A stretch of DNA of 63,923 bases, the filler included, from Craspedostauros australis (Eukaryota): NCBI GenBank assembly GCA_030167865.1. It is 6 parts of 6 records of this genome, joined end to end, with 100 filler letters (N's around TTAATTAATTAA, not from the genome) between each part and the next. Parts side by side here need not be neighbours in the genome. Positions count along the whole stretch, not along the records: positions 25,110 to 35,884 come from JALAGF010005821.1; 5 more parts are not named here. The stretch is one strand, 5' to 3'. Shown one piece after another: positions 19,172-43,028 of this stretch. The stretch's first letter is position 1, and the number at the start of each line of letters is the position of its first letter. The position numbers and the translations under genes were made by a program. A model generated the notes under the pieces. The model ran no database searches, had not been told where the DNA came from, and saw only the letters and a list, made by a program, of their open reading frames with translations.

Positions 19172-20653
19172 ATGTTGACCAACAGCGACGAGATCCGCAA
19201 CTACCTTACCAACGTCATGGGTTTCACCAAGGCCGACATTGGCGAGGCACTCAGTGCACAGGGACTGAATACCTTTGACGACCTGTCGATGTTCTCCGAT
19301 GACGACTTGCAAACACTCTGCGATCGTATCCGTAAGGGCAGCGGTCTCGTAGCCAACCCAGCACAGACATCGGGCAACCGCTCTACTACTCCGGCACAAA
19401 TCAAGGATCCCGGAGTCACTATCGGATGGGTGCATGAACTAAAGCTCCGGAAGCTCCGCTATGTGCGCTTCCATTTCGATCGAATCCAGCGTCCTTTCTC
19501 TGCTGCCGAAGCACCGATTGAGCGTCTCAACGCTCTCTGGTCTCTTTTTGAAGAAGAAGTCCGTGCGAAAGACTCGCCTTCAATAGACTTGCCCGATCCC
19601 CTCACTCGTGTGGACAACGTCCGCGAGACGCTCGAGGATATCGCCAACTATCTCGAAAACATGCTTGGAGCAAGCGACACCCCACTGTCCTACATTATCC
19701 GCGAGAATCCTCTCAAGCCTGAAGACAGAATGCCAGCTGTCAACACTCCGTTTGGCTTCCCATCCCTCAAAGAGGAACTCATCGACAGGGCTGCCCATGT
19801 AGGCCTCAAGCATAAGGCCGACAACGCGGCCGTATGGCAGGTCATTCGCCATGTGACCCACGGTGGACCGGCATGGAACTGGGTGCAAGGCAATGAGCGG
19901 TCCCAAGACGGACGCACTGCATACCTGACACTCCAAGAACACTACCGCGGTGACTCCTACCAAGTCCAAACCAAGGCAACCGCGACCGGCATCATCAACA
20001 ACACCTTCTACGATGGCAAGTCACGCAACTTTACATTCGAGACGTACACCCAACGCTTGAACTCTGCCTTCGAAGATATGGCTGCATGTGGTGAACCACT
20101 CGTCGAGGACGCCAAAGTCCGGCACCTGATGCATGGCATTCGTGTGCCACACCTCACCACCGCGTGTGATGCCATCATGCTCAACGAAAGCATCCGTACC
20201 AGCTTCCCCGCCACCGTGAATGCACTCAGCGAAGTGATTGGCCGAAAACAGGCATCGACTCCCACGCGTCAAATCTCGTCCATGGGACGTAACAGCAACG
20301 GCGGCGGTCGTGGCGGTCATTACCGTGCCAACAAACCAGGACGTGGAGGTCAAGGACGGACCAAACAATACAATCCCAACATGGTCATCACTGACCGTCA
20401 TTATCTCCCTGAGGAATGGGCCGTCATGTCGTCCGCTCAGAAGGCACGCGCATTGGAGTTACGCGGCGCACGTGACAAGCGCCGCGGTGTGATGTCTGTT
20501 GGCCGAGGCAGTCCGGCGAAACGCACTCGTGAGGATACGGACGGCCATTACGGGCCCCCTACCCCACCAAATCAGAACGGCAACACTGGTACCAATCAAA
20601 CCGCTGGCATTGGTTCCATGATGTCTCGCCGCAACCAAAATAACCGTTCCTGA
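19172..20653 (+). CDS. gag: CoDi gag
   Basis: ATG at 19172. PLSYIIRE, DNAAVW, DGRTAYLTLQEHYRG and FYDGKSRNFTFETY are typical of diatom CoDi gag; RG-rich tail. Confidence 0.88.
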   Translation: MLTNSDEIRNYLTNVMGFTKADIGEALSAQGLNTFDDLSMFSDDDLQTLCDRIRKGSGLVANPAQTSGNRSTTPAQIKDPGVTIGWVHELKLRKLRYVRFHFDRIQRPFSAAEAPIERLNALWSLFEEEVRAKDSPSIDLPDPLTRVDNVRETLEDIANYLENMLGASDTPLSYIIRENPLKPEDRMPAVNTPFGFPSLKEELIDRAAHVGLKHKADNAAVWQVIRHVTHGGPAWNWVQGNERSQDGRTAYLTLQEHYRGDSYQVQTKATATGIINNTFYDGKSRNFTFETYTQRLNSAFEDMAACGEPLVEDAKVRHLMHGIRVPHLTTACDAIMLNESIRTSFPATVNALSEVIGRKQASTPTRQISSMGRNSNGGGRGGHYRANKPGRGGQGRTKQYNPNMVITDRHYLPEEWAVMSSAQKARALELRGARDKRRGVMSVGRGSPAKRTREDTDGHYGPPTPPNQNGNTGTNQTAGIGSMMSRRNQNNRS

Positions 20654-23600
20654 TCGCAGCATGGAGGGAACCAACAGATCACGTCTGTACATCTCTCCTT
20701 GTCAGCTAACACGCCGCGAGCGGAACTTGACGCACACGCTGACACATGTTGCTTTGGCGACACTGCGTACATTGTGCACACCACGAACCAGACTGTGACA
20801 GCAACCCCCTTTCTTGACTCACTCGGGAACATCGACAACGTGCCAATCGTCACGGCAGTGATAGCATATGATGATCCTGTAACATACCAAACATTTGTTC
20901 TTTTCTTCCCACAATCGATCTACTTTCCTCGTCTTGAGCACCCGTTATTGTGCCCGAACCAGATGCGAGCTGCTGGTGTTGTTATTAATGATGTTCCATT
21001 ACTCATGATCAATGAGGATGAACGGAAACCGGAGGATCACTCGGTGATCTCCTCCCTTAACAACCTCCATATCCCGCTCCAACTACGTGGCACCATATCG
21101 TACTTCCACACAAGAAAACCGACACGACAAGAAGTCCAATCCGACCATGATTGCATCCATGTCATGATGACACAGGAGTCCACCTGGGACCCAGCACACT
21201 GGTCAGCAGGGGACGACGAGGACGCCATCAGAACGACCGTCCCCACAACTTCAACATCCATGTCGCCAACCATCCTACGCGACATCAAGGCAGTCAGCGG
21301 AACGCAGTCCTCCAATCGAAAGGGGACGATCACGCCTGAAGCACTGGCACGACGCTGGCGCATCGGTGTTGATGCGGCTACACGGACGTTACAGGCCACG
21401 ACGCATCTAGCCATGCGCGACTTCCGCAATACAACAGGCACACGACGACTCAACCCGTATGCCATGCAACTGCGCTATCGTCGCTTGAACACACAAGTGT
21501 ATGCCGATACAATGCATGCGAAAACGAAATCCATCCGTGGCAACAAATATGCAATGATATATTGCACACCATTCCACTGGGTTCGTGTGTATCCCGTGAC
21601 AGAACGCAAGAACGCACACCTCACCCTTGATGAGATGTTTCGCGATCACGGCATTCCCCACACAATCATACCTGACAACGCAAAGGAGCTCGTGGCTGGC
21701 GAGTTCCGACGCAAACTGCACAAGGCGCAAGTGTCTATCCGTCCGATCGAGGCGTACATACACAACCAAAACCGTGCAGAGGCGACTATCCGCGAACTGC
21801 GTCGCCACTATCGCCGCTTGATGACTTCCACTAACACGCCCGAATATCTGTGGGATTACTGCTTTGAATACTGCGCGGAGATCCGAAGTCACACAGCGCT
21901 ATCTGTATACGATCTGCATGGTGAAACACCCGCCACCATCCTGTCAGGCAATACAGCCGACATCTCACATATTGCCGAATTTGCATGGTTTGACTTCGTC
22001 TGGTATATCAACATACAGGATGCCTCCATGAACGTGAAGCAGCTCGGACGCTATCTGGGGCCAAGCCGTTCTGTCGGCGAGGCCATGTGCTCGTACATAC
22101 TCACCGCCAATGGCGTCGTTGTTTCCAAGTCCTCTGTCTTGCCTCTTTCACATGATGATACGAACGACGACGTGCTCAAACAAAAGCAAACCGATTTCAT
22201 GACCAAACTGAGCACCAAATGGAACAAACGCATGGAAGGCATGGTGCCAGATGACGACGGCGACGAAGTCGATGACACCGCCGCCGATATCGCCTACCTA
22301 CAGAACACAGAGCCATTGGAACCCATCGTCGAACCCGAAGACGTCGCCAGCGAAGTGTACGACCGGTACATAACAGCGAAGGTCGTCCTGCCGACAGGGG
22401 ACGAGATGCGATTCGGCACTGTGAAACGGAGGAAACGAGACGCAGATGGCAACCTCATCGGCCATTCGCATCACAACCCGATGCTCGACACATCACGCTA
22501 TGAGGTCGAATTCCTCGACGGGCACCAAGAGGCATTCAGTGCCAACCAGATCGCAGAAAACATCTACGCTCGTGTCGACGACGATGGATATGAGACCGTC
22601 CTCATGGACGAGATCATCGATCACAAACGCTTACCCTCTGTCTCTTTTGCTTCTCACAAAACGAAATCCACGAAAGGATGGAAACTATGTATACGCTGGA
22701 AGGACGGATCAACCTCATGGATACACTTACGCAACGCGAAGGAGGCCGACCCCGTCCGTGTGGCTGAATACGCAGAGGCCAATCTGCTTGTGAATGAACC
22801 AGCCTTCAAGTGGTGGGTGCCGCACACCCTCCGCAAGCGACAGCGCATCATCATGGCAACCAAACGGAGACAAGTGCGCAAACAAGAGATGTTCGGTGTT
22901 GCGCTACCGACCTCCGTGCGACATGCGCTTGCCATCGATGCGGAATCGGGCACTGATATGTGGCGCAAAGCGATCGAAAAGGAGATGAAAGCCGTACGCC
23001 CTGCCTTCGATATCAAAGAGACCGACACTCCCAATCCCGTTGGACATCAATACATGGAGTGTCACATGATCTTCGCAGTGAAGGTCGACCTCACACGAAA
23101 AGCGCGATTGGTGGCTGGTGGCCACATGACAGAGGCACCGGCGGCCATCACCTATGCGAGTGTGGTGTCACGCGAGAGCGTGCGCATCGCATTCATGCTT
23201 GCCGCACTCAATGACTGCGACATACTGGCCGCCGACGTCCAAAACGCATACCTGAATGCACCGTGCAGAGAGCGCATATACACGCGATGCGAACCCGAGT
23301 TCGGGTCCGACCAAGGCAAGATTGCCGTCATCTGTCGGGCCTTGTACGGCCTGAAATCCAGCGGAGCCGCTTGGCGCGCGCATCTGGCTGAGACACTGCG
23401 CGATTCGATGGGATACACATCCTGCCGCGCAGACAGCGACGTCTGGATGAAACCAGCTGTGGCGAGCGATGGGTCAGAGTATGATGAATACGTGCTTGTG
23501 TATACAGACGACATCCTTGCGGTGTCCAAACAACCCCAGCGCATCCTAGATGCAATCGGCTCACACTTCTTCCTCAAACCGAGTTCCATCGGCCCTCCTA

Positions 23601-24580
23601 CTACTTACCTTGGCTCCACTATCGCACCATACCACATTGACTCTGATGCAACCCGTCCCAAATGGAGCATGGGATCACGAGCATACATACGAGCCGCCAT
23701 CAAGATCGTAACAAAATGGCTCACAGACCGACAGGGGCGCCTCAAGACAAAGGCACCCAGTGTGATACCGAACAACTACCGACCTGAATTGGATGCAACA
23801 CCGTTGTGCGATGCAGAAGAGACTCAATTCTACCAGCAACTGATCGGCATCCTGCGATGGACCGTTGAGCTGGGTCGCATTGACATCTGCTGTGAAACAT
23901 CCATGATGTCATCGTATTGTGCTGCGCCACGTACAGGTCACCTGCGAACGCTCTTCCACATGTTTGCCTATCTGAACTCACACGATCGTTCTCGTCTTGT
24001 CTTTGATGATGCATACGTTGACAAACCTGCTGTGATACAACCGGAGTGGGGCGACTTCTATGCCGACGCCCACGAACAGATACCGAACGACATGCCACCA
24101 CCACGCGGAAAGGAGGTCCAGATGACTTGCTTCGTTGATGCTGACCATGCTGGCGACCGGGTGACGCGACGGTCGCGCACTGGAGTCCTACTGTACCTGA
24201 ACTCATCGCCCATCCTATGGCACAGCAAGAAACAAAACAGCATCGAAACGTCCACGTTCGGCAGCGAGTTCACCGCGCTCAAGGTGGCGACGGAGATCGT
24301 CATCGGCATGCGCTACAAGCTGCGTATGATGGGCGTCCCTATGGACGGCCCGACAGACATGCGCGTCGACAACCAGAGCGTCGTGTACAACGCCTCGCTC
24401 CCCGCATCACAACTACGAAAGAAAGCCAACGCCATCGCATACCACTTTGTCCGAGAAAGCATCGCGGCGGGTGTGATGACCGTCTCATACGAACCATCAG
24501 AAACCAACCTCGCCGATATGCTCACCAAACCACAGTCAGGGCCAAGACGAACCACTCAAGCACAATGTGTTTTTTTCTAA
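20654..24580 (+). CDS. pol: CoDi pol (protease, integrase, chromodomain-like region, RT, RNase H), in frame with gag past a single TGA
   Basis: ELDAHADTCC (PR); YADT, PDNAKE, QNRAE (IN); EIIDHK...WKLCIRWKDGSTSW (chromo-like); ADVQNAYL, LYGLKSSG, YTDD (RT); FVDADHAG, ETSTFGSEF, NLADMLTK (RH). Confidence 0.93.
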   Translation, partial: SQHGGNQQITSVHLSLSANTPRAELDAHADTCCFGDTAYIVHTTNQTVTATPFLDSLGNIDNVPIVTAVIAYDDPVTYQTFVLFFPQSIYFPRLEHPLLCPNQMRAAGVVINDVPLLMINEDERKPEDHSVISSLNNLHIPLQLRGTISYFHTRKPTRQEVQSDHDCIHVMMTQESTWDPAHWSAGDDEDAIRTTVPTTSTSMSPTILRDIKAVSGTQSSNRKGTITPEALARRWRIGVDAATRTLQATTHLAMRDFRNTTGTRRLNPYAMQLRYRRLNTQVYADTMHAKTKSIRGNKYAMIYCTPFHWVRVYPVTERKNAHLTLDEMFRDHGIPHTIIPDNAKELVAGEFRRKLHKAQVSIRPIEAYIHNQNRAEATIRELRRHYRRLMTSTNTPEYLWDYCFEYCAEIRSHTALSVYDLHGETPATILSGNTADISHIAEFAWFDFVWYINIQDASMNVKQLGRYLGPSRSVGEAMCSYILTANGVVVSKSSVLPLSHDDTNDDVLKQKQTDFMTKLSTKWNKRMEGMVPDDDGDEVDDTAADIAYLQNTEPLEPIVEPEDVASEVYDRYITAKVVLPTGDEMRFGTVKRRKRDADGNLIGHSHHNPMLDTSRYEVEFLDGHQEAFSANQIAENIYARVDDDGYETVLMDEIIDHKRLPSVSFASHKTKSTKGWKLCIRWKDGSTSWIHLRNAKEADPVRVAEYAEANLLVNEPAFKWWVPHTLRKRQRIIMATKRRQVRKQEMFGVALPTSVRHALAIDAESGTDMWRKAIEKEMKAVRPAFDIKETDTPNPVGHQYMECHMIFAVKVDLTRKARLVAGGHMTEAPAAITYASVVSRESVRIAFMLAALNDCDILAADVQNAYLNAPCRERIYTRCEPEFGSDQGKIAVICRALYGLKSSGAAWRAHLAETLRDSMGYTSCRADSDVWMKPAVASDGSEYDEYVLVYTDDILAVSKQPQRILDAIGSHFFLKPSSIGPPTTYLGSTIAPYHIDSDATRPKWSMGSRAYIRAAIKIVTKWLTDRQGRLKTKAPSVIPNNYRPELDATPLCDAEETQFYQQLIGILRWTVELGRIDICCETSMMSSYCAAPRTGHLRTLFHMFAYLNSHDRSRLVFDDAYVDKPAVIQPEWGDFYADAHEQIPNDMPPPRGKEVQMTCFVDADHAGDRVTRRSRTGVLLYLNSSPILWHSKKQNSIETSTFGSEFTALKVATEIVIGMRYKLRMMGVPMDGPTDMRVDNQSVVYNASLPASQLRKKANAIAYHFVRESIAAGVMTVSYEPSETNLADMLTKPQSGPRRTTQAQCVFF

Positions 24581-24751
24581 CAGACAGACTGCGCGACAGT
24601 ACCCAAGGATGGTCGGCCACGGAGTCAATCCGTGGTGGATGGGATGAGCGCCCTGTGGTGCCCACGCATGGGGCATGCAGCAGGTACATACCATGTGAAG
24701 CGAAAATGTGACGATCCGACAGTCAGCAGAGCCACAGCGAATCGAGGGGAC

Positions 24752-24925
24752 CAAACAGGGATACGTGTGAAACGGTTAAAACGGGGTTAACGTGCGAACA
24801 CGGGCATCGCCCAACAACAGGAGAACAGTGTACTCTCTGACAATCCTACACGACCCTATAACCCTTATAATCTGAATCCTTTGGGTTTGCAACCCTCAAT
24901 GACAATGCATGTGTGTGTTAACTTG
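24752..24925 (+). repeat. 3' LTR, 174 bp
   Basis: Follows PPT GAGGGGA and matches the 5' LTR. Confidence 0.9.
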
Positions 24926-25276
24926 GAATTACAGTTCGTCCGTTATCCAACATACATACAGTGTCCGTTATGTTGAAACACAAGTATACCATCGTTCGTT
25001 GAATGTTCTNNNNNNNNNNNNNNNNNNNNNNNNNNNNNNNNNNNNNNNNNNNNTTAATTAATTAANNNNNNNNNNNNNNNNNNNNNNNNNNNNNNNNNNN
25101 NNNNNNNNNATTTGTCGTGTTGTCTCCGTGTTATTTTTACTTGCAATTGCATGAGATCATGTCATGCCTCTCTCATGCTCACAGTTCCAAGAAGACAATC
25201 TTGTGAGCTCGACAGCATTCCNNNNNNNNNNNNNNNNNNACAGTAAACAAACACTCTCCTCACCAACAACAACGAC

Positions 25277-27440: not shown

Positions 27441-28360
27441 CTATGATATGTTACATACTCGTACACTAAGAGCACAGTCCACTACTCCATGTACTGCTTC
27501 GGGCTTGCTAGATGGAGCAGATTGGACTTCCTCTCTTCGGGGTGCGTCGCCATTGGACGCCTCTTCGTTGATTGTCACGTCCTCCTTGCCGTCATGTCCG
27601 CATTCGTTCCGCTTGGCCTCCTGTCCTGTTTGTGTTGATCGGATGCTTTGCTCCGTCGCTGCAGAAGGGTCCATCTCTTCGCTGCCATCGTGTGTTGACG
27701 AAGACCCCATTACCTGACTGGGATCATCTTGTGATGAACATGATCGAGTCTTTGCGCTGGTCTCGTCTTGCGGAGTGGGCACCGCAGATGCAGATGCCGT
27801 CTCCGAAATGATGGTTGTTTGCGAAGACTTCTTGGTGCTGGCATCGGCTTCTTTCGTTTGTGCGTTGTCTCTTGCAAGTCCCATGGTGCTGAGAACCCCA
27901 ATGGTGGCCAACGATGCAACAGCCAAGGCCAACAGCTGTGATGAGGTGATGCCCGCCTTCTGCTGACCTTTGCTCTCCTCAGACACCACTGCGCCTTGTT
28001 TTGCCTGTGAGTTTGTGACTGTGGCCGTCGCGGATTGGGCCAGGTTGTCCACGATTCCATGGGATCCATCTTGTGGCACACAATGACATCGCCGCTCTCA
28101 CCATCGTACACCTCAAAGCTCGTGCTGTCGTAGTTCACGAGGTTGATGACTGGTGTTGCACCAGCTGGGTTGCTGGTAGACTTGTCGGCGCCAGTGCTGT
28201 GTGCTGAATCGCGTGATGCAAGGGCGTCGTCTCCGTCACCAGTCCATGGATCCTCGTACGAATGCTTCTCCTCCATGGAGTCGCTGATAACGATCACGCC
28301 ATTGGAATGACTCTGCGATGGTCGATTCTGCTGCAAGGCACGGGAAAAACGTTGAAACAC
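27441..28360 (-). pseudogene. 3' part of an S/T/A/D-rich low-complexity gene, frameshifted; probably continues 32217-34690
   Basis: Overlapping ORFs 27710-28360 and 27441-28079, with the same composition and strand as the fragment on the other side of the array-bounded element. Confidence 0.5.
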
Positions 28361-28510
28361 GACTTAGAGCGTGTTCGACCACTTCGACGATTTCCTTTGA
28401 ATCACTGAAGCGATGTTGAAGTTCGACTCAACTGATTGTTGCATTCGTTGCAGAATAACGTTTATAACGTCAATATGTTTAAAAACCGAACTCCAATGAC
28501 AACAAACTGA

Positions 28511-28706
28511 TTCAATGAAAGTAATGACGTTTCAATGAAAGTAATGACGTTTCAATGAAAGTAATGACGATTCAATGAAAGTAATGACGATTCAATGAAA
28601 GTAATAACGATTCAATGAAAGTAATGACGATTCAATGAAAGTAATGACGTTTCAATGAAAGTAATAGCGTTTCAATGAAAGTAATGACGTTTCAATGAAA
28701 GTAATG
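28511..28706 (+). repeat. 20-bp tandem array, 10 copies, TTCAATGAAAGTAAT plus 5 variable nt
   Basis: Units at 28511, 28531 ... 28691. Confidence 0.97.
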
Positions 28707-28989
28707 TCGGACCACGACTGAACGACGAAAACACGACTCACACGATTTTGTCGAAACTCGACGCCACACCAACCGTACACGATGAATCAGTTTTGTATCG
28801 TTCCAAAACAACAAGAACGTGATGTGCGCGCTGCCTGCATCACTGAATGCAGCGAACGATAACGCTGGTTATACATGTGTTCTTGGTGCAAGTACTACCA
28901 TTGCATACTTTGCACAATTGGCACATTCTCTATTTGGCATTGCTGTGACACAGCACAACCGCAAAGCCAGAGCAAGAGAGACTGCGATC

Positions 28990-31500
28990 TATTATATTAT
29001 ATTATATTATAGTATATTATATCATGTTTGTATGGTATGGCAGAGTAGCTCGCGCTAGTATGTACAAGTGCTCCACAACTATCAGTGCTGCATCAGCAGC
29101 AGTGCCATCGCTGAAGGTATGCAGAGATTTCCCATAATAAGTACTGGCCATCACTTGTGTTTGGGTATGTCTGTCGCCATCCCTCCAAACTGCCACATCT
29201 CCACCACAAGAACTGCACCAGTCTACCTATGCCTCCTGACAATCCATATAGGAGTTGATTGTTGCTTGAACCTGCGGCCGCAGTGAGACCTTGTACATGC
29301 AAGCCATGCAGATGAAGCGGAGTACACCGTTGACCTAATCACAATAATAGCTCAAGGATTATACTCAATTCACATGAGAATGCGCCAACTGCGCTTTTCT
29401 CCTCCTCCTTTCTACTCTTCCACTCACAAAGAGGGGGTACAGAATCTGGTTGCTGCATTGGTGTGGCCGGTGATGCGGTACTGAAAGTTGTGCAGGATGC
29501 AACAGCTGTTGCCATCCAGCTGGTCATCTGTTGGAGCTGACTTGAGTGCCAAAGTGCACAACCATCCATTTACATAGCCCAGTTGATACTTCAACGGTAT
29601 CACCAAGGAAAGGGGGCAGCTGTACCATCCGCACTGTCCCATCCGATGTCCGCTTGCTGTATGCGGCTGTTGATATTGGAGGGAGAGTCCTGCCAACTGC
29701 TGAGCCGTGGCACACCTCTGCTGATCTGTCTTGGCCTCCCCATGATACCAGCGGCGACCAAGGGGTGCATTTTCCAGGCCTTCATTTCTGTCCCATCTCC
29801 ACAAGAACTTCACTCCACGTGGATTGTATGAGCAGGCCTTGGCATAACCACATGTGATTTGCGTACTTGGTCTTTTTGCATGTTGGGCGCCTGTTGCTGG
29901 TCCGTACATGCCACTGTTTCATCCGTTTCCCAGACATAATCTTGCTGTAGACTTTCTTGAAGGTGGTGCATTGTTTGGATGCACTCAACCCGCGCATTGC
30001 AGCCACCATGCAACTTGTTCTTGACTGGCTTTGCGAATGAACCGGCTCCAGAGCAACCTATCCATGAATTGACAATTCCAGAGCTGCCCTGGCACGGTCT
30101 TGTATGTGATGGTAGATAGCTTTGTGTGCAATGATAGCAGGCAATACTCTCTCCATGCACTGCAGACATACAGGCAATGCTTCCTTGTATCTCCATGCAC
30201 CACTAGTGCAAACCTGCCAACATGCCCACCAATATGTTCATGTGCACCCAAGGGTCCTTGACGGGCAGCCTCTCATTGTCCTGGTGCCCTTTGCCATGCC
30301 ATCCAGTAGCTCAAGACTGCAGGTTGCAGGCAATGAAATGAGTAGTGCTCGCTAGATCGCTGTCTGCATCCTCCAGCCTGATAGTGTGCACTGGATCGAG
30401 AACCATAAGCGCTGGTGCATTGTCACAGGCAAGCTGGATGTGTCATTTGATCCCATGGACCGGTTGGCATGCTAGATCCACGCAAATATGCTGTAGATAC
30501 CAGCGAGTTCTGATTGATGCAGTTGCACCAGCTGGCTTCCTCATGGCACCTTGTTCACAAATGTGACTCTGGAGACAGGGTTCAGAAACGGTGGTTGCAT
30601 TTCTGCAGCTGGAGTGCCGATTCCATTTTGGATGACCCACCCCTGCAGGCCACGCATTTCCTGTTGCCAACACTGGTGATGAAGGCTTCCTCTCCACCAG
30701 TGGACACCATTTGTTTGGCCGACCATCATTGGCTGCGCTCGGCGCTGCGGAACAACCAGCTGATGATTGCATTCTTCCTCACTGTTGGCTCGATGCAGTT
30801 CAATATGCAGCCTGGGACCAGCTGATCCCCTTGCCAAGTTTCATGAACTGGCAGTGATGGCTTCACAAGGGTGGTGCCTGTCTGGCGATGATACATGCCT
30901 CCCCTGATCCCTCTGCTATGCGCCCAATACAATGATCTTTGACCCACTTCCCGGACCATCTGGCCATCTTCCAACAAGAGGTAGCCTGGGTGTCTGGAAA
31001 ACAGACTGTATCAGGCCCTCAGCCTAGCTTAGATGTTGTTGATCACATTGTTGGCTCCTGGCCAGGAGATGATAACCAACCACCCTAGTTTCCATTGGGA
31101 TAGCTATCACAATCCGAGCAGCGGCCATTTCAGACTCAAATGTGGTTTGGTGTGCCCTCTGGGATGTAGGACTTGCTGTCATATGGTCATTCCATCTGCA
31201 TTGAGAAGGTCTGACTTCCATATGACTTGCAGGTGCACCAGGCAATGATTGATCATAGCCTCTTGCTTCTGGGAGTATTCAAATAGGAGGATTGCATCCA
31301 TAATGAGTTGGTTGTTCTGTCTTGGCGGTTGGAGAGGGGAAGTGGAGAACTACGTACACATGTCAGCCTGTCATGTATTGTCCTTCATCAGGGTAGACAC
31401 TTTGGTTGTGTGGAGATGCTTCATTCCATTGGGTAGCACGAGCACACCTCTGTCAGCCCTGTCTCAAGCACTGTGGCTTTCACCATGGAGCAGAGAAGCA
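28990..31500 (-). mobile_element. Decayed, 5'-truncated non-LTR retrotransposon (Ambal-like diatom LINE with RNase H)
   Basis: Minus-strand fragments in the expected order: NQLIMDAI...MINHCLVHLQVIWKSDLLNADG (~31330-31180), AGWVIQNG (~30640), ACDNAPAL (~30420), GKRMKQW...RPTC...NHMWLC (~29930-29840), QADIGW...G...W (~29650). (ATTAT)n tract at ~28990-29020 is a possible tail. Boundaries approximate. Confidence 0.7.
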
Positions 31501-31964
31501 TACGATTGATGGAGTAGTAATCCGTTGCTCTAGTTCGCACATCAACCCACAGCCAAGCACCCGTCGCCCAACTCCCATCACACCATTCTGCCTCGCAGCC
31601 AAGTTCTCAAATGGGAGACGGAGAAAAAGAACCAGTCGACGCAATCAACCAAATGGCGAGGACGATCAGCCAAACATGGGTCTTTGTAGCAGCAACAATG
31701 CAAGAAGGACAAGTAGAACTCAAAATGGTAACAATACTATAGCAACAGTTGTACTATGTAAGATATAATATTATACATCTGGAACCCAGCTTCTACTGCT
31801 TGTGGTAATGTTATGGATTGTGTCACACAGTAAGGGCAAGCACTTGTTGTGTGCGTGTTTGCATCACGCGCACGATTTTTTGTGTGTGAACGGAGGTCCA
31901 AACGTGGATTCGTCCAATCGTGAATCAAAAGACTCCCACAAACATTCGATGTCAGTCGTGACGT

Positions 31965-32180
31965 TTCAATGAAAGTAATCACGATTCAATGAAAGTAATC
32001 ACGTTTCAATGAAAGTAATCGGCATTCAATGAAAGTAATCACGTTTCAATGAAAGTAATCGGCATTCAATGATAGTAATCACGATTCAATGAAAGTAATA
32101 GCGTTTCAATGAAAGTAATAGCGTTTCAATGAAAGTAATAGCATTTCAATGAAAGTAATGACGTTTCAATGAAAGTAATA
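31965..32180 (+). repeat. 20-bp tandem array, 11 copies, same unit and same orientation as 28511-28706
   Basis: Units at 31965, 31985 ... 32165. Confidence 0.97.
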
Positions 32181-32216
32181 AAATCGACGTTACCGCCTAT
32201 AACGTCTATTTAACTT

Positions 32217-34690
32217 TCATGGATTGCAACATCGGAGTTGGTCTTGGCTCATCGGTGTCGAGGAGTGTCTCGAACACGGGATTGGTGTGGCGAAGGGCGT
32301 TTGTCCGTTCTCCGGACACACTTTCAACGAATTTCCCGTGACTTGCTGGTGATCATCGTTACCCTCGTTGTCACCGGAGCAGTGGTCATCTTTGTCGTCG
32401 AGCACAATGATCTCTTCGACATTTCACGAGCGGGAGGCGCTCTCTGCTGGGGTTTTTTGCTCGATGGAATAATTCCCAGGTGACGCACCACCCTGGCTTC
32501 CGTGGTCGGTGACATCAATTGGGTCATGTTCAGCCGGAGCACCACCAACATCAGCATTGTCGCAATCCTTTTCTGCATTCATCAACAACTTGGTCATGAT
32601 CGCTGCGCCGACCCCAAGGACAACTGCTGCACCTGCGGCTACTCCAGTCGAGGCGTTCTTGGTGACATCGTCCAATGACGACTTCGCTGAGCTGATCGAC
32701 TTGTGGTATGAGTTACGCTCGATGTGACCAGTCGAAACAGTTGCTGATGCTTCTTGAGCGGCGTCGGCAACATCGTTTGTTGAGGCCGCAGACGCGTTGT
32801 TGGTGCAGCTGCTATCGACAGGATTCGAGTTGGCGCTTGCGCTCGTCACCACGCTGACTGCAGGGCTGCCATCAGCTGTGACTTTGGCTTTGGCTGTGGT
32901 TGTGGTCGTGGTTTTGGCCGCAGCTGCCACAGATGCCGCCGTAACGACTGTTGTGGCCACGCCAATAGCTGCGGTGGTTTTCAATGCGTTGGCGTTGTCG
33001 TCCTTGTTGCTGTTGTCATGTTTCCCGAAGCCGCGATCGCTCTGAGTTGTGGATGGCCTCGATTGGTCTTGGTGCCCAACCAGCACCCCAACCTTTTCCG
33101 AGCCAGAGTCCAACAGGCTGTTCAAGACGGACTCATTGAACGACGAAGGGCGTTCGTTTTCCGCAGAGCTGGAAGACAACTTCCTGGTGGAAGCTGCACC
33201 AGATCTCACCGACCGTTCATTCTCGGAGACGGTGAATTCGGAGGCTGTGGATTGACCGCTGTTCGTTCCTCGCGCAGGCATGAGAACGTCCATGCCCTGG
33301 ACGACTGGGATGTCATTGGATGAACGTACGGTTTCCACAAGGTGGCCGACTATCCCTGGGTTGGCTGCACCGGCGACTAGTTCTTGCTCTTCAGATCCCA
33401 GTTGACATGCGTCATTGCTGGCAGATTCGTCCTTGTTGCTGGTTTCGTATGAACTACCAGCAGCCAGTTTGGCTGCAGCAAGATCCATGATGTCTTCGAG
33501 AGGAGCCGGAGGAGGGCTGCTGGTCTCTGTGAGAGGTTCGATGCCTTCTCTCTGCATCTGCAAGNGAATCATTGCTGCAATCTTCGCCTCGTAGTCAGAT
33601 GATGTCGAAGAAGAGAGGTCAACGGCACGGACCTTGCCATTCTTGACACCTTCGGAACGATTTGTGTAGACATCGCTGGATGCCAGGCTGGATGTTCCAC
33701 TTGCGCTGCTCTCTGCCGACGGACGCGACTGCTTGCTGCCACCGGCGTTCTGCGTTGTTTCTGTTGCTGGTCCACCGACGGATGATGATCTGTCTCGTGT
33801 GTTGGAAGATGATGCAGCTGCTGCTGCCACGGCCGCTGCAGTGCCAATTGCGGCTGCTCCGACCACGGCCCCAGAAATGAAAATACCGTAGCTGGTGCTG
33901 CCATTGGAACGGTTGGAGCGTGACTCTCCGTTCGAGTACGTCGAATCGTCGTAGTATACCGATCCGCTTGACAANNNNNNNNNNNNNNNNNNNNNNNNNN
34001 NNNNNNNNNNNNNNNNNNNNNNNNNNNNNNNNNNNNNNNNNNNGTGGAATTGTTGCGTGCTGGACGAGTCTGATTCGTTGAAGCGGACCGACTTTTGCGA
34101 TCCTTCATCTATGACCGAAACGGCCCGCACTTCGATGTTGTCGGTCTGTTCTCCACTGTCGGTAGCTTGCGTCATGGTCACAGCTGGGGGATCGGCCTTT
34201 CGTGCCAATTTCTCGGCCTGCTGTTGATCGTTCGACTGCTGGTCGGCCTCGGACCCAGAAGACAAGGATGCGGAACGCGCTGTTTGTGCCGGTTGCCGCT
34301 TATTTGGAGCAAGCACACGGTTCGCAACGTATGCTCCCGCTGGAAGATCGATGCCTGTTGCAGAGGCTGTTGGCGACGCGATTCNNNNNNNNNNNNNNNN
34401 NNNNNNNNGTCGCTGGTTGGAGACGCGATCCGTGACGTCCATGGATGTGGTCTGACCATCATGATTGCTGTGAATGCTTCAGATGGTGCTCTTTTCGACG
34501 CCGGCACTCGCATTCTTGCTTTGTCCAATCCTGGATGGTGGTTCCTTGCGAAGCAAATTGTTGTAGAACGTTGGCATCGACTGAGAGGCAGCAATTGCAC
34601 CGAAGGCCGCCACCGCCTGCTTACCACGCATCTTTCTGACCGAAGTAGGTGCAGGGATGACAGATACCGAACCTTCCGCCTCTTCCCTGG
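32217..34690 (-). pseudogene. Large low-complexity S/A/T-rich gene with an in-frame TGA at 32424-32426; cut by an LTR at 34691 and by the array element at ~32217
   Basis: ORF 32424-34442 continues in frame into ORF 32217-32405. No recognisable domain. Confidence 0.55.
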
Positions 34691-35884
34691 TGTTGGAAAT
34701 CCGGGGTTAGGTATTAGATTAATCTGTTATCAATCTGTACCAATTTAGAACTGTGAGAACAAACTCCTTGACTCTCCAATTCCAGTTCAGCAGCAAGTGT
34801 AATCTGTAGCAGTTCACCATGATCATGCACTTGTTCATGGTTGCTTTCATCTGCTTCATCAGCTTGCTCTCATGCTCTCTTCTGCAGGTTCATCATGCAT
34901 CATCGTGGTGATTGGCATCTTCTACATTCGAGCAGCATCTCTCATAGACGCACAGGTACCTTCAGCATGGGTCTCAGTCTGATCGATCCCACTTGACCNN
35001 NNNNNNNNNNNNNNNNNNNNNNNNNNNNNNNNNNNNNNNNNNNNNNNNGTATTCCACCTGCGCCATCATCACATACTCACCGGTCATGTTCAATGCATGT
35101 CGCGTCGTCATTCGTGCTCTTGAGCGGATAGGGGCATCGCCTCCGTTTCGCTTTCTCAGAGAAGCGATCCCTTGTCCGTCGATGCGCGTCGACATGTCTG
35201 ATACATATCGACAGTTTCGCCCATAGTCTTGGTTCATGTGCGATTACATCCCTAGAGGTCGATCCATAGGTTCGCCCTCATTACAGCGGTGGTACATGGA
35301 TAGGCTCCATGGTGGGACATGANNNNNNNNNNNNNNNNNNNNNNNNNNNNNNNNNNNNNNNNNNNNNNNNNNNNNNNNNNNNNNNNNNNNNNNNNNNNNN
35401 NNNNNNGTCGAGTTGTGAAGATATTATTGGGAGGTGCGGCAATCATGGGTATCTTGGTAAAAGCGTACCCCCGATTCCTGACACCCTTCCATTGTCGCGT
35501 CGACAATATATCGTTCTTGACTCTGCTCTCTCTTACCCTTCATCACCACCATCCCACTCTCCGTTTCATTAGTCTAATGCTGACCTTGGCTGGATGATAT
35601 CGCCCTTGTGTCTGTCGTAGATCTCCTTCTTCGTGTTCTTGGTGAACCCGTCTGCGATGTTGTCNNNNNNNNNNNNNNNNNNNNNNNNNNNNNNNNNNNN
35701 NNNNNNNNNTTCTCGAATGAAGTGATGTCGTATGTCGATGTGTCTGGTTCGGGCGGATGTGGATGGGTTGGAAGCGATGAAGATTGCTCCCACGTTGTCA
35801 ACCATTACGTCTGCTGGTCTGTGCATCTCCAACCCGATGTCTCTCATCAGTTGGGTGAGGAAGCGGATCTCCTTTCCGGCCTCC
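34691..35884 (-). mobile_element. 3' end of a copia element (family B): RNase H tail, PPT and 3' LTR 34691-35483
   Basis: VDNVGAIFIA, RTRHIDIRHHFIRE and NIADGFTKN. Minus-strand PPT GGAAGGG directly before TGTCAGGAATC...GATTTCCAACA. Confidence 0.88.
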
Positions 35885-37882
35885 NNNNNNNNNNNNNNNN
35901 NNNNNNNNNNNNNNNNNNNNNNNNNNNNTTAATTAATTAANNNNNNNNNNNNNNNNNNNNNNNNNNNNNNNNNNNNNNNNNNNNCTTGGGTCTTTCTTCA
36001 TCTCTCCTGGTCTTGCCTAATCTTGATCTCTGTTTGATCACATATGGATTGATCCGTCTACGTCGACGGGGTGCATGCATCACCCCTGACGATGTTGTTC
36101 TGGATCCTAAGTATTGTTGCCACGTGCTCGATGATGCACTCGGCATGGCTAGACAGGTCAGNGTACCATGACTAANANANAATCTCGATTCCGAGGATCA
36201 CAATGACCGATCCTCTGACGTCATACGATGATGTCAGTGCCTACGTCATGTTCGATGACCGTAGTGACCAAATATCAATCGTGTATCAAGACTCACTCGA
36301 CTATACTCTCAAATCGAGTCGAATCAAAAAATAGTGAATCACGTTTCAGTCATGGGAGATGGGTACCTAATTTCGATCTAGATGTTGATACAATGCGTCT
36401 TCGAGGACTACCCCGAGGGGGATCCTCACGCGGCGTGGAACGTTCTCGCGGAGAAGTTCCGGCCATCCGACGCAGCAACAAAGATCAAACTCAAGCGTCA
36501 ATTCAACAACGAAAAGATGAAGAGAGACTCGGACCCCGACATCTACATTACGCGACTCGAGCTTTTATGCTCACGTCTCCACGATGTCGGATACACGATC
36601 AGTGAAGAAGAGATGATCATGCAGATTCTCAGCACGGTAAGCAACGAGTACAAGACTCACATCGTGAACTTCCATCACCAACTCACGTTCAATCCAGATG
36701 TAGTCACCATCAACGCAATCAGAGGAGTACTCCGAACTGCACACGCCACTCATCAAGGAGGAAAGGCGTACGTCGACGATTTCCAAGACAACACGAAGAG
36801 CAACGACACCGGCTTCACTAGCACCGGTAACTTCAAGGGGACCTGCCACAACTGTGGTATGTATGGTCATAGATCTGCGGATTGCCCCGAACGAAAGAGA
36901 GCGAACAACAAGAAAAACAACAACAAGATGAACGGAAAGCGCAACAACAAGAACAAAGGAAGCGGCTTCAACGGTAAGTGTAACTACTGTGGCATCTTCG
37001 GACACCGCGAGGCGGAGTGCCGAAAGAAGAAGTTCAACGAGAAGAAGAAGGCCGACGAGCAGGCCAACACAACAATGGAAGGACACGACAAGAGCGGCCA
37101 CGAGATGGTACTCTCAGCCAGAGACGCGCCGCTCTGCATGGAGGTGTCCAACAACTACATCGAAGACTCCTTCTTCGATAACTTCGTGTGCGTCGGAAGT
37201 GACGACGAAGTACAGGACGATGAGATCATCCCGGAGTGGCTCAACGACAAGCCAATCATCCACGAGGTGGATCCAAGACGCGAAGTGAGCTATGAATGCT
37301 GCTTCAACGCGAACGACCTGATCGGTCCATACGGTGACGGAGCTGTGATGGGCACTGAGGCCATTGACATCGAAGTCGAAGCGGCCATGAACGCAGAGGA
37401 TGCCGACGCCAACGAGAACGGCACGGATCAAGACAACAACGAGAACGTCTCCGGAGACGAGACGAACGGTGGCAACGTGCTGCCTCCTCCAGCAGCGGGG
37501 AACAACAGAACGGGCATCTTCGACGAAGATGACAGCGATGAAACAGAAGATCATCCAGACGACAGCTTCAACCCAAACGAGCGTGTCGTTTACCCGACGG
37601 ACATCGACTTCCCACCATTCCCGAATCCAAACAACCGGAATGAGCTTCATCGAATCGATACGATCCCATACGCGACAGCAACAGCGATGAGAATGCAGAA
37701 GCATCTTATCTTCGATGCCGTGTCGGCAGTGGGAATGCGAAAGTACCCAGAAATGGAAAGAGGGGTACTCAAGGCAATATGGGTGAACATGATGGGATCC
37801 ATCCTATCCGAGAACTTCAGATCAATCGAAGAGATTCCGCCAACGGGGCGATCATCAATCAGCTATTGGAAGCGGCGGATAC

Positions 37883-38415
37883 TGCCTATTGCCGGCGGAC
37901 GATTGATGTTCATATGATTGCTAATGGTAATGAATGTTGTTGTTGATGATGTAAGATCAAAATTATGATTACTTGAGCTATCTCTCTCCCTTCTGCAGTC
38001 TGCACCTCTTGTCAATCGTATTCATTCATTTCGAGATCATGTTGTTTGTGCCTTATCCCAAACCTGCGCCACTCTCTGTTTGACTTCTCGTTTTGGATGG
38101 AGGTCAGGGTTTGGATGACGATATTCATATGCAAATATTTTTACGATTGAATCTTGACCAATCATTCTTCCAATTGGAGCTTTGACTAATCAGACTTCCA
38201 GTTGGAACCTTGACTCATCCGACTTCAGTTTGAGTCTTGACTAATCTGATTTCAATTTTGATTCACGACTCGTCAGTCTTGATTGACTGTTAACACGACT
38301 CGTAGGTGTGACTGGCAATGTGATTGCTTGGGTGACTTATTGATGACTAGTATCTATTGTGCACAAGTCTAGGTCTTGTGTCATCAATAGTCTATCTAGC
38401 CAGCCGTCTAGGGCA
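37883..38415. mobile_element. 533-bp solo LTR inserted into the copia polyprotein gene
   Basis: TGCC...GGCA termini with 5-bp TSD GATAC (37878-82 and 38416-20); AT-rich interior with degenerate TTGAC repeats. Confidence 0.85.
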
Positions 38416-41400
38416 GATACGGAGACAATCCCAAAGATGGACTTGCATTATACCCTCGGAAGATGCATGCATGTGCTCCTGCGTGAGCGACCACGAGTCA
38501 CACCCTACGATTCAGTCACCGGAACTCATTTGAACAGCACGGTTCCATCGGAGTACGCGGATCCGTACGAAGATAGTGAAGACGATGAAGACATGAACGA
38601 CAACCACAATCCCTACAACGAAGATGGGATTCATGAGGACGAAGAGGACGACCACATCATGGACGACATGGCCGCAGCCGCCATGGAGCAGCTCCACAAG
38701 ATGAGCACCAAGTACAAGGACAAGGTCAACAAGGACACCTGGCTCGCCGACAGCGGAGCTTCGTGTCACATCGTCAATTCGGACGCCGCCCTTTTCAGCG
38801 TGCGGCACATCAAGTCATTCGTCCAAGTGGGAGACAGCTCGAAGCTGGACTCTCCCAAGATGGGATCCATCCGCAAAAAGGTCAAGCAAAGAGACAACAC
38901 TGGCCACATCATCCGGCTTGATGATGTGAAGTACGCACCCAAGATGGCGGTGAACCTTTTCTCTACGAACAAGGCTCTGTACAACGGCTACCAGATGGGT
39001 AGCAACGGAATTCTGATGGACATCATCAACGGATCCGGAACAAAGATCGTGTTTGATCGAGTCTTCCCCACATCCAACGGATTCATCACGGGAGTACAGA
39101 TGTATCCCATCATGCCAACCAACAACGACATGGCTTCGACAGCCATCACCAAGAATCCATCCAAGGAGGTAAGCGTGGCGAACTTCCATAGAATGCTCGG
39201 CCACGCGCCACTCGAGACCATGAAGCGGACTGCCGCTCAATACGGATGGAAAATCATTGGCGAGATGCTGGTGTGTCGCGACTGCGCGGTTGCGAACGCG
39301 AGAGTGAAAAACATCTCGAAGACCAGAATCCCGAGAGCTACTCGCCGCGGCGAGCGCTTCTTCATTGACATTAGTTACACTAAACACATAAGCTTCAGAG
39401 ATAAATGCTACTGGACCCTGATCGTGGACGACTGCATGGACTACTGCTGGAGTTTCTTTCTCAAGAACAAAAGCGACCAACCAGGATACATCAAACGATT
39501 CGTGCAGACGATCAAGTCACAGACAGGTGATCAACAGATCATCTTCCGAGGTGACAACAGCGGAGAGAACAAATCCACGCAGGATACTCTCATCGATGCA
39601 GGACTGAATGTGAAATTCGAGTTCACGGCATCCAACACGCCGCAACAGAACGGTAGAGTAGAACGCAAGTTCGCGTACCTCTACACCAAGATCCGCTCCA
39701 TGCTCAATGGAGCACAACTCGATGAAGAGTATAGGCATGGCCTGTGGGTAGCAGCTGCAAGCACTGCCACCGCCATTGCCGACATCACTGTAGCGAAGAA
39801 TCAGAAGGAGTCACCACATCGCCAATTCTTCGGCAACAATCCACCATATGCAGACACACTCGGCACATTCGGAGAGGTGGGTGTTGTGAAGACTACCTAC
39901 GGTGGGATCACCGCCAAACTCAAGAATAGAGGAGAAGAGATGGTGTTCATTGGATGTGCACACCAACACGCATCAGGGGTCTACAACATGTACAGACCAT
40001 CGACCAAATCACTGGTCTGCTCTCGCGACAACAAGTGGCTCAACCAATCATACGGACAGTTTTGTGGCTGGGCACCAGCACCAAACATATCCAACAAAAC
40101 AGGAACAACAGATGCAGAAGGTTTCACAACCATCGGATGGAAGGGAGCAACGCCAAGGACGACAACGCGTCAAGCGGCTGAGACAAGGAGAGTATCCTTT
40201 GCCGACAGGAACCAATATCATATCCTATCAGACGACGATGAGGAGGATGATGAAGATGATGGAGTAGTAACCCAACTAATCAACAACGACGAAGATCGGA
40301 GCGAATCCGACCCCGAGGATGACGAGGTCCTACCATCTGGCGACGAAGCCGACGATGACACAGGCGTCACTCCTCCGAACACACCAGCGAGGTATACACA
40401 TGACACACCATCAAGACCTCCACCAAGCAAACCAAGCAAGCGTGACATAGCTAGAAAGGAGAGAATCCGACGTCACGAAGCACGAGGCAGGAAGGGAGAA
40501 GCTAATCCCAAGCCGACTGCAGGGAAGAGTATTCCCAGAGCTCTGCGTGAGCTCGCAGACTTCAACAAACGAGGTCGAAAGGAGGAAGGTTATGAGAACG
40601 AATCATCATCCAACAAAGATAGTGACGAACTCAGCCACGAGATAACCGACGAATCCAACAACGAGGAAATCATGGACGAAGAAGAAGAGATCGAGATCAC
40701 TCACCATAGCACAACAGGACTATACGGAATGAATACAATCATCACCGAGTCACCGGCGATCGATATCGGATTGTCGATACAGGACGAGAACAAGGAACCA
40801 GGGAAGCACATCGAACCTACAACGTTCGATGGAGCTTTCAATCATCCAGATCCCATCCATCGAAAGGGATATCGAGCAGCCATCAAGAAGGAATTCGACT
40901 CCATGGATACACGCAAGGTGTACAGCAAGATCAAACGAGACGCCATCCCACGCGGCCGCAGATGCTGCAAATGTAAATGGGTCTTCAAGCTGAAACGCGA
41001 CGGCACACATCGAGCGCGGCTCGTTGCATGTGGCTATTCACAAGTCGCAGGAGTAGACTTCCAAGAGCATTACTCACCCGTCATCCAAGACGTGACCTAC
41101 AGAGTCATGATGGTGATCATGCTGATCAAGAAGATGGACTGCGCACTCGTCGATGTCGTAACGGCATTCCTACATGGAGACCTCGACGAGGAGATCTACA
41201 TGAACTGNCCCAANGGGATGGATCATCAANCAGACGAAGCCCTGACCCTACACAAGCCAATCTACGGGCTTGTGCAGAGCGCCAGGCAATGGTTCAAGAT
41301 GTTGGTATCGACCCTCAAGAACATCAACTTCGAACAGAGCGCGGCAGACCCGTGCTTGTTCTACAGGAAGACGAACGAGGGAAGTATGATCGTGGCCATT

Positions 41401-42414
41401 TACGTGGACGACTGCTTCTGCTGCGGAGACTCCAAGGCATTGGAGACATTCCTGAAGGACATCCAAGGCAGCAAATTCAAGGTAACAATCGAGCGCGGAC
41501 TTGGAGACTACCTCAGCTGCAACATTGAACTGAACCATGACAAGACTAGAGCAACATTGCGTCAACCACATCTCATCCGACATCTCATCGAAGAGTTTGG
41601 AACCAAAGTTGAGAAGATGCAACGCTATGCAACACCGGGAACCCCCGGTCAGATCATCGTACGACCATCCGAAGACAACGGACTACAGAAGGTCGGACCG
41701 GAAGATCATGCCGAATACCGCCGAGGCGTCGGCATGCTACTCTTCCTCATCAAGCACTCGCGACCGGATATCGCAAACCCTGTGAGGAGGTATTGATCGG
41801 GCCAACGAAGGCCGCAATGAAGGAGATGTATCGGATCATCAAATACGTGATCGATACAAAGGACTATGGATTGAAGATCTATCCAGCACGTCCAGACAAT
41901 GACAGCTGGGACATGGAGCTCTTCTGCAATAGCGAATATGCAGGAGACAAGAACACAAGAATCAGCGTAGGAGGGTTCATCCTATACCTGTGCAAGGTAC
42001 CAATCCTTTGGCGATCCAAGGCACAGAAGGCCGTCACACTCAGCTCATCCGAAGCAGAATACATTGCCCTTTCCGAAGCGGCAAAGGAGATCTTCTTCGT
42101 CATGCAGCTACTCGAAAGTGTGGGCGTTCCAGTGAAGACACCGATCAAGGTCCGTGTGGACAACATCGGAGCGATCTTCATCGCCANNNNNNNNNNNNNN
42201 NNNNNNNNNNNNNNNNNNNNNNNNNNNNNNNNNNNNNNNNNNNNNNNNNNNNNNNNNNNNNNNNNNNNNNNNNNNNNNNNNNNNNNNNNNNNNNNNNNNN
42301 NNNNNNNNNNNNNNNNNNNNNNNNNNNNNNNNAGGCCGACTTGCAACGTGAACATGAGAAGTCGTACCTTGACACATCGAGAACATTCGAATGACCGAAT
42401 GCACACAGGAAGGG

Positions 42415-42980
42415 TGCCGAGATATACATGTGAGTATATGTCAAGATGTACGTGTATATGTGCATCGTTCACCCGTTATTCTCTCATACGCACTTGAACG
42501 GTATAACTACATTCGTGTCGATAGTATACTGTGATTCGTCAGAATTACAGTAGAAATGGAAGACACGGAAATGAGCAGAATTTCTGGAGGAAATTTGCAA
42601 TCGACGATTTCTGAGAGAATTAGAACATCGTCCGTCCATCCATCAATGGTACCAAGAGAATCTCGAGGTACTTCCCAACTAAACCTCAGATGACGATATC
42701 ATCTGACAGTCCACTGCATCACCAATGGAACATGACATCTGGAGAGCAGAAGGACGCCTACTGACGTTGACAGGATGTCATCGTGTCACCATGTTGACAT
42801 CTGTCTCCAGGTCAGAGCAGGAGGCGAAGATCCGATGATCGAAGAGCATCAAGATCATGGATACGAGAGGTGAAGTTCAAATGGTGAGTACTCATGGAGT
42901 AGGAACCAGTAGTAAATGAACGGAGTGTCGGTGCGGAGTACGCATCGAACATGGAGTATCGTGTAGTACGAGAACACGAT

Positions 42981-43028
<48 letters not shown>

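Follow-up and report, generated by a model that had tools for sequence, protein, structure and literature searches.

Foldback elements such as Tetris are described as consisting of an outer domain, tandem repeats, an inner domain and a variable non-coding middle, and the repeats inside the terminal inverted repeats (TIRs) of Galileo are said to carry extra transposase-binding sites (PMC4079207, in the text available). [quoted passage not shown] Here we describe a locus of the diatom Craspedostauros australis that carries arrays of this general kind. The window, meaning the whole stretch of DNA that was analyzed, comprises 63,923 nt of assembly GCA_030167865.1, in six parts of six records joined end to end with filler letters between them, and all positions count along it. 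Two arrays of one 20-bp unit lie in a block at 28333–32346 (4,014 bp) that has inverted ends, and a third array lies in a further copy of the flanking module at 44790–45401. We tentatively read the block, with a probability of roughly 40%, as the decayed relic of a non-autonomous foldback-like DNA transposon, and the third copy as a solo arm.

The first-pass annotation of the window reported two arrays of one 20-bp unit, 10 and 11 copies long, in the same orientation and about 3.3 kb apart, and Tandem Repeats Finder (TRF) and a motif count confirm this. The left array (28511–28710, plus strand) contains 10 units, each made of the 15-mer TTCAATGAAAGTAAT and a 5-nt spacer that is mostly GACGT or GACGA (TRF: 28511–28706, period 20, 9.8 copies, 95% matches). 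The right array (31965–32179, plus strand) contains 11 units with the same 15-mer and the spacers CACGA/T, CGGCA, AGCGT, AGCAT and GACGT (TRF: 31961–32179, period 20, 10.9 copies, 86% matches), and the stretch just before it (31945–31964) resembles a degenerate unit by eye, at 15 of 20 positions. The two arrays are separated by 3,254 bp, or 3,454 bp from start to start, and are 89–90% identical over 197–199 bp. A third array at 45097–45236, also on the plus strand, has 7 units (TTCAATGAAACTAAYC..). The exact 9-mer TTCAATGAA occurs 27 times in the window, on the plus strand only and inside the arrays only (10 in the left, 10 in the right and 7 in the third, the last at 45097–45225), compared with a mean of 0.94 and a maximum of 4 in shuffled sequence. 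The palindrome and the AGTAAT of the unit had been called invariant; AGTAAT is indeed present in all 21 units of the left and right arrays, but the remaining (eleventh) right unit, at 32065, departs from the palindrome and reads TTCAATGAT, so the earlier description is very nearly correct.

In the left and right arrays taken together (21 units), variation touches 1 of 315 positions of the 15-mer TTCAATGAAAGTAAT and 35 of 105 positions of the 5-nt spacer. The units of an array are not mutually independent and P-values therefore overstate the contrast, which is nonetheless plain. The contrast persists without the edge units (1 of 285 versus 30 of 95), and in the third array, edge units likewise dropped, 5 of 90 positions of the 15-mer vary versus 9 of 30 spacer positions. 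Because the CG of the spacer is retained in 17 of the 21 units, CpG decay is not the cause of the spacer variation. A near-invariant 15-mer beside a freely varying spacer points instead to a constrained, predicted protein-binding site, and this pattern supports the view that the arrays behave like protein-binding platforms, in line with the earlier proposal of iteron-like protein-loading sites. The near-palindromic core TTCA-A-TGAA, taken with the strict 20-bp period, suggests a dimeric protein bound along one face of the helix. At position 11 every one of the 21 left and right units has G, whereas the third array has C in 6 of its 7 units and T in the other; such fixed differences between arrays around a kept core have the signature of concerted evolution. 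For the left units the nearest counterpart is the last full unit of the right array, with 35 bp identical, and it is conceivable that the left array was re-seeded from the right one. A separate 20-bp array of 8 units at 26–178 of the window is built on another palindrome, TGCATT(T/A)AATGCA, with a variable tail; it has the same core-plus-spacer design, and its flanks are unrelated.

The pattern of variation within the units also bears on a functionless local duplication, in which segmental duplication and inversion copied a minisatellite-bearing stretch two or three times, with only slippage and conversion keeping the arrays homogeneous. Slippage and conversion fail to explain why variation should be confined to 5 of 20 positions, or why the spacer CG should survive in so many units, and we regard this account as quite unlikely. 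It draws some support from loci elsewhere, where the same 9-mer has come up independently in 20-bp minisatellites. A metagenome scan for three successive TTCAATGAA N11 units returned 32 loci, about a third of them 10-bp satellites. Among the 19 arrays of 20-bp period that were read, none has flanks like those of the window (at E≤1, BLAST found nothing beyond chance matches of 13–44 bp), and TAACGT lies near the array in one of the 19. To judge from their sequences these metagenome arrays are independent minisatellites, neutral as to the finding. The one with TAACGT nearby is on a contig, L024, that carries two long, equally oriented arrays of 20-bp units (547–1079 and 2438–2946, about 1.5 kb apart), whose units join a TTCAATGAA-like AT-rich core to (T/G)(A/G)ACGTC in a design that recalls both the arrays and the TAACGT boxes of the window. 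As a relative it was rejected, since its flanks are unrelated and its sole open reading frame (ORF) has no Pfam family.

The arrays are embedded in a larger repeated module of about 0.7 kb. Comparison of the window with itself aligns 31672–32348 with 44814–45401 (68.8% identity over 423 columns and 71.5% over 305), and this reveals a third module copy, missed earlier, at 44790–45401 on the plus strand, about 70% identical to the right copy at 31650–32348. Pairwise similarity begins at about 31650/44790 and ends within a few bases after CTTGC at 32346/45399. The right inner domain (31650–31964, plus strand) is homologous to 44790–45096 (z=58; 206 of 285 aligned positions identical), with no significant homology further left than about 31650. 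Beyond the array, the right outer domain (32180–32346, plus strand) contains GACGTTA/TAACGTC at 32186–32206 and a terminal box at 32322–32346, and is identical to the third copy at 119 of 169 positions. The third copy repeats this order, with its inner domain at 44790–45096, the array at 45097–45236, TAACGT motifs at 45243–45268 and the terminal box at 45375–45399. As delimited by these alignments, the module comprises about 300 bp of inner domain, the array, a cluster of TAACGT motifs, and about 170 bp of outer domain with a 25-bp box at its end. Box and array are separated by 153 bp in the left copy, 142 bp in the right and 145 bp in the third. A search with nhmmer profiles of the two kinds of flank, inner and outer, recovered no further module copies in the window, and the whole analysis of the module rests on these three copies in one window.

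What was copied can be delimited from the DNA between the copies. The inter-array intervals show no mutual homology by blastn or tblastx, and a 3.3-kb macro-repeat was rejected on that ground. Because the DNA between the modules is not duplicated, the copied unit is the module alone, with a defined end, and this too speaks against local segmental duplication. That account is favored by every copy lying within 17 kb, by a flank divergence that looks neutral, and by there being no target-site duplication, partner or coding capacity. The mismatches between the right and third flanks, at about 28–30% of positions, form no conserved blocks, the lengths of identical runs being as in shuffled alignments (P=0.30 and 0.16). 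A 126-nt stretch of the outer domain that is free of indels between the right and third copies has 10, 12 and 15 substitutions at the three codon positions, without the periodicity of coding sequence. Since the core of the array is near-invariant and the mismatches in the flanks are shuffle-like, the core has been maintained while the remainder drifted. The three module copies, within 17 kb of the window, lie in unrelated contexts. The proposal of a mobile element is thus upheld in part, in that a non-coding repeated module with a sharp common boundary in unrelated contexts fits a transposon-derived repeat, but the arrays are not its ends. The third array is unpaired within the window, so pairing is not obligatory, yet it sits in the same flanking module.

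The outer ends of the block are inverted. The first-pass annotation found no clean TIR, but there is a 25-nt inverted pair about 150 bp outside the arrays: the left terminal box (28333–28357, minus strand) is an inverted copy of TTTCAACGAATTTCCCGTGACTTGC, 88% complementary to 32322–32346 (22 of 25 matches). With up to 3 mismatches, the 18-base core of the box has 3 matches in the window versus 0.04 expected, on the plus strand in the right and third copies and on the minus strand in the left. The left outer domain as a whole (28333–28510, minus strand, with a TAACGT pair at 28456–28470) is inverted with respect to the right outer domain. The reverse complement of the left outer flank (28323–28474) aligns to 32183–32358 with 109 matches, 37 mismatches and 36 gap columns, at z=7.8 versus z=1.2 for the forward strand, and it also aligns to the box of the third copy (z=5.0). 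The left inner domain (28711–29040, minus strand) is less certain in orientation than the outer one, with z=6.8 for the reverse complement and z=4.0 for the forward strand; its distal 105 bp (28934–29038) are inverted with respect to 31734–31839, and it includes a (TATTA)n tract at 28990–29022 found by TRF. Inverted flanks and an inverted box mean that the block is bounded by inverted ends at 28333 and 32346, about 150–180 bp outside the arrays. The arrays had been taken for the ends of the element, but homology extends 140–180 bp further out, to a 25-bp box that is inverted between left and right. The module itself has no significant terminal inverted repeat of its own (right copy P=0.28, third copy P=0.03).

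Between the arms lies a middle domain of about 2.6 kb (29041–31649) without recognizable coding or RNA content. None of its 36 ORFs of at least 55 aa reaches the Pfam cut-off, and none encodes a tyrosine recombinase or other recognizable protein. The longest, at 164 aa, has a single match (E=9.6e-4) to a translated tandem repeat, which is spurious. The middle domain contains no Rfam family and no tRNA, shows no similarity to the neighboring intervals, and is absent from the third copy.

The succession of an outer domain carrying an inverted box, a tandem-repeat block, an inner domain and a middle that lacks coding content matches foldback anatomy, and for this reason a foldback-like relic is the best single explanation of the block. 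Its two arms would be inverted copies of the module enclosing the middle domain, each arm running from an outer domain that ends in the terminal box through a TAACGT pair and the array to the inner domain, and the third copy would be a solo or rearranged arm. On this reading the arrays would be multimerized binding sites for a sequence-specific and probably dimeric DNA-binding protein, which may have been the transposase of the family, its accessory factor or a host factor. The site recognized would be the near-palindrome with its AAGTAAT extension, spaced by two helical turns, and in an active element the arrays would gather many copies of the protein near the ends. Past mobility, and the standing of the left and right modules as two ends of one element rather than two neighboring copies, are what this anatomy suggests. 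The setting counts in its favor, since transposons abound in the window, where two Copia-type elements and a DDE_Tnp_4 ORF are present. The locus shares with the Drosophila FB, Galileo and Tetris elements, as the available accounts present them, long inverted arms composed of an outer "final" domain, a tandem-repeat block and an inner domain, a variable middle without coding capacity, and the occurrence of non-autonomous and rearranged forms.

Several observations weigh against this reading. The left array keeps the direct orientation while the flanks on both its sides are inverted, an arrangement that a simple long-TIR model does not predict. The 20-bp unit is not self-complementary (10 of 20 matches to its own reverse complement by hand count), so the left array is reversed relative to its own flanks. 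With direct rather than inverted arrays, the likeness to the long inverted arms of FB, Galileo and Tetris fails for the array, at least as those elements appear in the text available. The arms match at only about 60–65% of alignment columns, the arrays are 89–90% identical despite this divergence and need a separate story such as conversion or re-seeding, and the right and third flanks carry mismatches spread as in neutral decay, with no apparent sign of constraint. Both ends of the module coincide between the right and third copies; the module may therefore be the true unit, and the left–right pair could be two neighboring copies. There are only three copies, in one window. Finally, with the boundaries varied by about 12–15 bp, no target-site duplication of at least 7 bp with at most one mismatch was found. 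The best candidates are at chance level, either 6 bp with one mismatch (CTGCTG versus CTGGTG, 5 of 6) or 3 bp exact. At about 30% divergence, an old target-site duplication could have decayed.

The polarity of the arrays could also be taken at face value. In that case the block would represent an undescribed diatom family with long inverted terminal modules, each containing an array of the 15-bp site that is fixed in orientation and direct at both ends, a reading that we consider improbable. The array would then be a separately maintained, iteron-like loading platform for an oligomerizing DNA-binding protein, and separate maintenance would account both for the fixed genomic polarity and for a near-perfect core amid the decay of the arms. 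If true, such a family could be a sign that transposition, or else the maintenance of the array, includes a replicative or polarity-dependent step.

Transposons with TIRs carry subterminal clusters of binding sites, such as the hexamers of Ac/Ds, the 12-bp motifs of En/Spm and the sites of the P element. They resemble the foldback-like relic proposed here in having short repeated motifs within the last few hundred bases, in mixed orientations and beside a short TIR, and they differ in that their motifs are scattered and do not form head-to-tail arrays of 7–11 units at a strict 20-bp period. The foldback elements themselves differ in scale and state, as far as the available descriptions extend: the unit here is 20 bp rather than about 220 bp, the 8–10-bp target-site duplication of Tetris was not found here, and the present arms are only about 60–65% alike, number three in one window and belong to a diatom host. 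Among MITEs, the pearl-related DTC84 of Donax trunculus is a further point of comparison. It is likewise short and non-coding, with a few to about ten repeats arrayed at its center, flanks that serve as a "cassette" for the array, a palindrome in each repeat, and an array length that varies among copies (10, 11 and 7 units here), according to the part of the report available (PMC3879986). DTC84 is further described there as having a high copy number, flanks with short inverted repeats, and an AA duplication (PMC3879986). The present module differs from DTC84, so described, in having no significant inverted repeat of its own, no AA duplication and three copies in the window.

The TAACGT motifs had been given weight as possible recombination sites. 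The two strings quoted for them are present, GAATAACGTTTATAACGTC at 28453–28471 and GACGTTAccgcctaTAACGTC at 32186–32206. TAACGT shows no overall enrichment in the window, with 11 occurrences versus 11.7 expected, but 7 of these occurrences fall no more than 60 bp from one or other of the three arrays. The inverted GACGTTA/TAACGTC pair with its 7-bp spacer is confined to the right copy, one of three; the left copy has two direct motifs (28456–28470) and the third copy three direct motifs (45243–45268). With inverted flanks, and with direct TAACGT motifs in the left and third copies, the premise of direct, Crypton-like ends falls away.

Cryptons encode a recombinase and have neither TIRs nor long direct repeats, ending in terminal direct repeats of 4–6 bp (PMC3212892, in the available text). 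A Crypton-like tyrosine-recombinase element moving through a circle, with direct ends and the inverted TAACGT pair around its 7-bp spacer as the crossover site, had been the interpretation offered by the first-pass annotation, and we judge it very improbable. It has in its favor the direct arrays, the GACGTTA-7 bp-TAACGTC of the right copy and the want of a clear target-site duplication, which is also a feature of Cryptons, and the family is recorded from stramenopiles, with CryptonS elements reported from one diatom, in the portion of the source at hand (PMC3212892). Yet the outer flanks and the 25-bp box are inverted, the boundary of homology lies about 140 bp beyond the TAACGT site, and no recombinase is encoded, although a non-autonomous copy would need none. 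Set against Cryptons as there described, the locus has no recombinase ORF, has inverted ends in place of short terminal direct repeats, and has a candidate crossover site that is not conserved among its three copies. A Helitron was likewise rejected: the shared right end reads ...CCGTGACTTGC or ...CCGTTCCTTGC, with no CTRR, and the ends are inverted repeats.

The boundaries shared by the right and third copies are also what a solo or relic long terminal repeat (LTR) would have. Under this explanation the 0.7-kb module would be a self-contained unit derived from a retroelement and present as three separate relics, so that the pairing of left and right is coincidental. The inner domain and array would make up U3 with an enhancer-like repeat, the outer 140–170 bp would be R/U5, and TATAACGTC, 19–21 bp after the array, would be a TATA-like box. 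Both module boundaries are indeed common to the right and third copies, the module starts near TG (31654, 44798) and ends near TGATCA (32350–32355, 45400–45405), a TATAA-containing box lies just downstream of the array in both, and Copia-type elements are plentiful in the window. What follows CTTGC (TGGTGATCA, TGATCAG) may resemble a tRNA-Met primer-binding site. However, the right and third copies show no apparent 4–6-bp duplication (their 5-bp flanks are CCAAA/TCGTT and TTTCA/GCCAC, with the left boundary known to about 20 bp), and no gag, reverse transcriptase or integrase gene lies beside any copy (0 of 13 neighboring ORFs) except in the nested, unrelated Copia element. The right and third copies, though direct, share only about 70% identity, and no retroelement gene belongs to the DNA that separates them. 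The array and the TATA-like box of the left copy are flipped relative to its flanks, and neither Copia element of the window has LTRs related to the module. We therefore consider a solo LTR rather unlikely.

Of the two Copia-type elements, the one at 18482–24926 has an RVT_2 domain in the ORF 20654–24580, and its LTR pieces are 100% identical (18482–18565 to 24752–24835, and 18616–18699 to 24843–24926), so that to judge from these repeats it looks like a young insertion. The one at 34689–44641 has gag, zinc knuckle, integrase-like and RVT_2 matches at 36382–41796; only the ends of its putative LTRs match, at 75–78%, the rest is unalignable, and it contains several N stretches. A PIF/Harbinger-type DDE_Tnp_4 ORF lies at 15693–17027 on the minus strand, beside a 564-aa ORF without a Pfam family, and this PIF/Harbinger-like element has candidate inverted ends at 13068–13094 and 17255–17291 and a perfect 31-nt palindrome at 13172–13234. 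A link of the block to this element (13–17 kb) or to the Copia LTRs was considered and dropped, there being no shared ends.

The relation of the block to genes was re-evaluated as well. It had been thought to interrupt a gene on the minus strand, but the 684-aa minus-strand ORF to its right ends at the stop 32424–32426, 78 bp before the block, and a through-ORF across the block appears only when this stop is deleted along with it. The two ORFs that flank the block were searched and have no detectable homologues, none of the 13 neighboring ORFs has a Pfam family, and the ORFs adjoining the three copies are not similar to one another. The block as an intron or insertion in one gene was rejected, as this requires removal of the stop and the GT donor is out of phase with the acceptor-like CCTTGCAG at 28331–28338 (by eye).

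The position of the arrays relative to these ORFs bears on the possibility that the modules are host cis-regulatory DNA, which we consider unlikely. They would then be homotypic clusters of a transcription-factor site (TTCAATGAAAGTAAT) and ACGT-core motifs, locally copied and selected in place, and would act as enhancers, silencers or boundaries for nearby genes. Selection in place would give just what is seen in the 15-mer, a core kept while spacers and the 0.7-kb flanks drift. All three arrays also have the same genomic orientation regardless of their flanks, a minus-strand ORF has its first ATG 236 bp from the left array, which lies upstream of it, and once the Copia element at about 34692–44641 is left out, successive arrays are spaced by 3.45 and about 3.18 kb. 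But the placement relative to genes is inconsistent, the left module being at the 5′ side of a minus-strand ORF and the right and third modules at the 3′ ends of such ORFs; the ORFs concerned are not paralogues, the two that were searched have no homologues, and the common 25-bp box and sharp boundary mark a copied unit, not a promoter. The right–third distance of about 3.18 kb, measured without the nested Copia element (34692–44641), is close to the 3.45 kb between left and right; the spacing is thus even although the intervening DNA is not homologous. The third copy adjoins a 199-aa ORF (45389–45985, minus strand), which has one hydrophobic stretch and a 24-bp coding tandem repeat at 45500–45626 that specifies a P/S/D-rich peptide; its last five codons and stop fall inside the terminal box of this copy.

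Searches beyond the window returned little that resembles the module. A scan of a viral collection for the array gave no match, as did a scan of prokaryote genomes for a pair of the 15-mer. Matches to the terminal box in viruses, at 5 loci, were set aside, since all are in one unrelated phage gene and have no arrays. Among the titles listed first in a literature search, the motif appears only incidentally in unrelated papers, and no array-bearing foldback element or MITE of this kind was found described for diatoms by title or abstract.

Other features of the window stand apart from the block. A 533-aa ORF at 11588–13189 contains masked stretches and has no Pfam family; the nearest eukaryotic protein-atlas clusters carry DUF7869 and, in a minority, DDE_Tnp_ISAZ013 (scores 0.85–0.88), which we take only as a lead to another transposase-like gene. 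A dispersed repeat family is present at 8461–9607, 42418–43266 and 51170–51403, with copies 84–96% identical and the first two mutually inverted. A RelA/SpoT-type ORF at 9829–11457 has named matches in a Bacillariaceae metagenome-assembled genome and in Fragilaria, as fits a diatom, the best among the matches listed being 64% identical.

We regard the block as a moderately interesting, unclassified repeat and not as a demonstrated new class. What is unusual is the fixed orientation of the arrays inside otherwise inverted arms, and the very clean contrast between 15-mer and spacer. If the module is confined to the present locus, it is a local curiosity. The DNA transposons of diatoms are poorly catalogued compared with Copia-type retroelements, and a foldback-like family with site arrays, if true, would add a class and give a handle on the protein that binds them. 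Conservation of the 15-mer is a strong hint of a sequence-specific binding protein, and with 314 of 315 positions kept, a free spacer and two-turn spacing, the 15-mer is a ready-made probe whatever the origin of the module. If the arrays act on neighboring genes or chromatin, they would be an instance of transposon-borne site clusters co-opted as regulatory DNA in a stramenopile.

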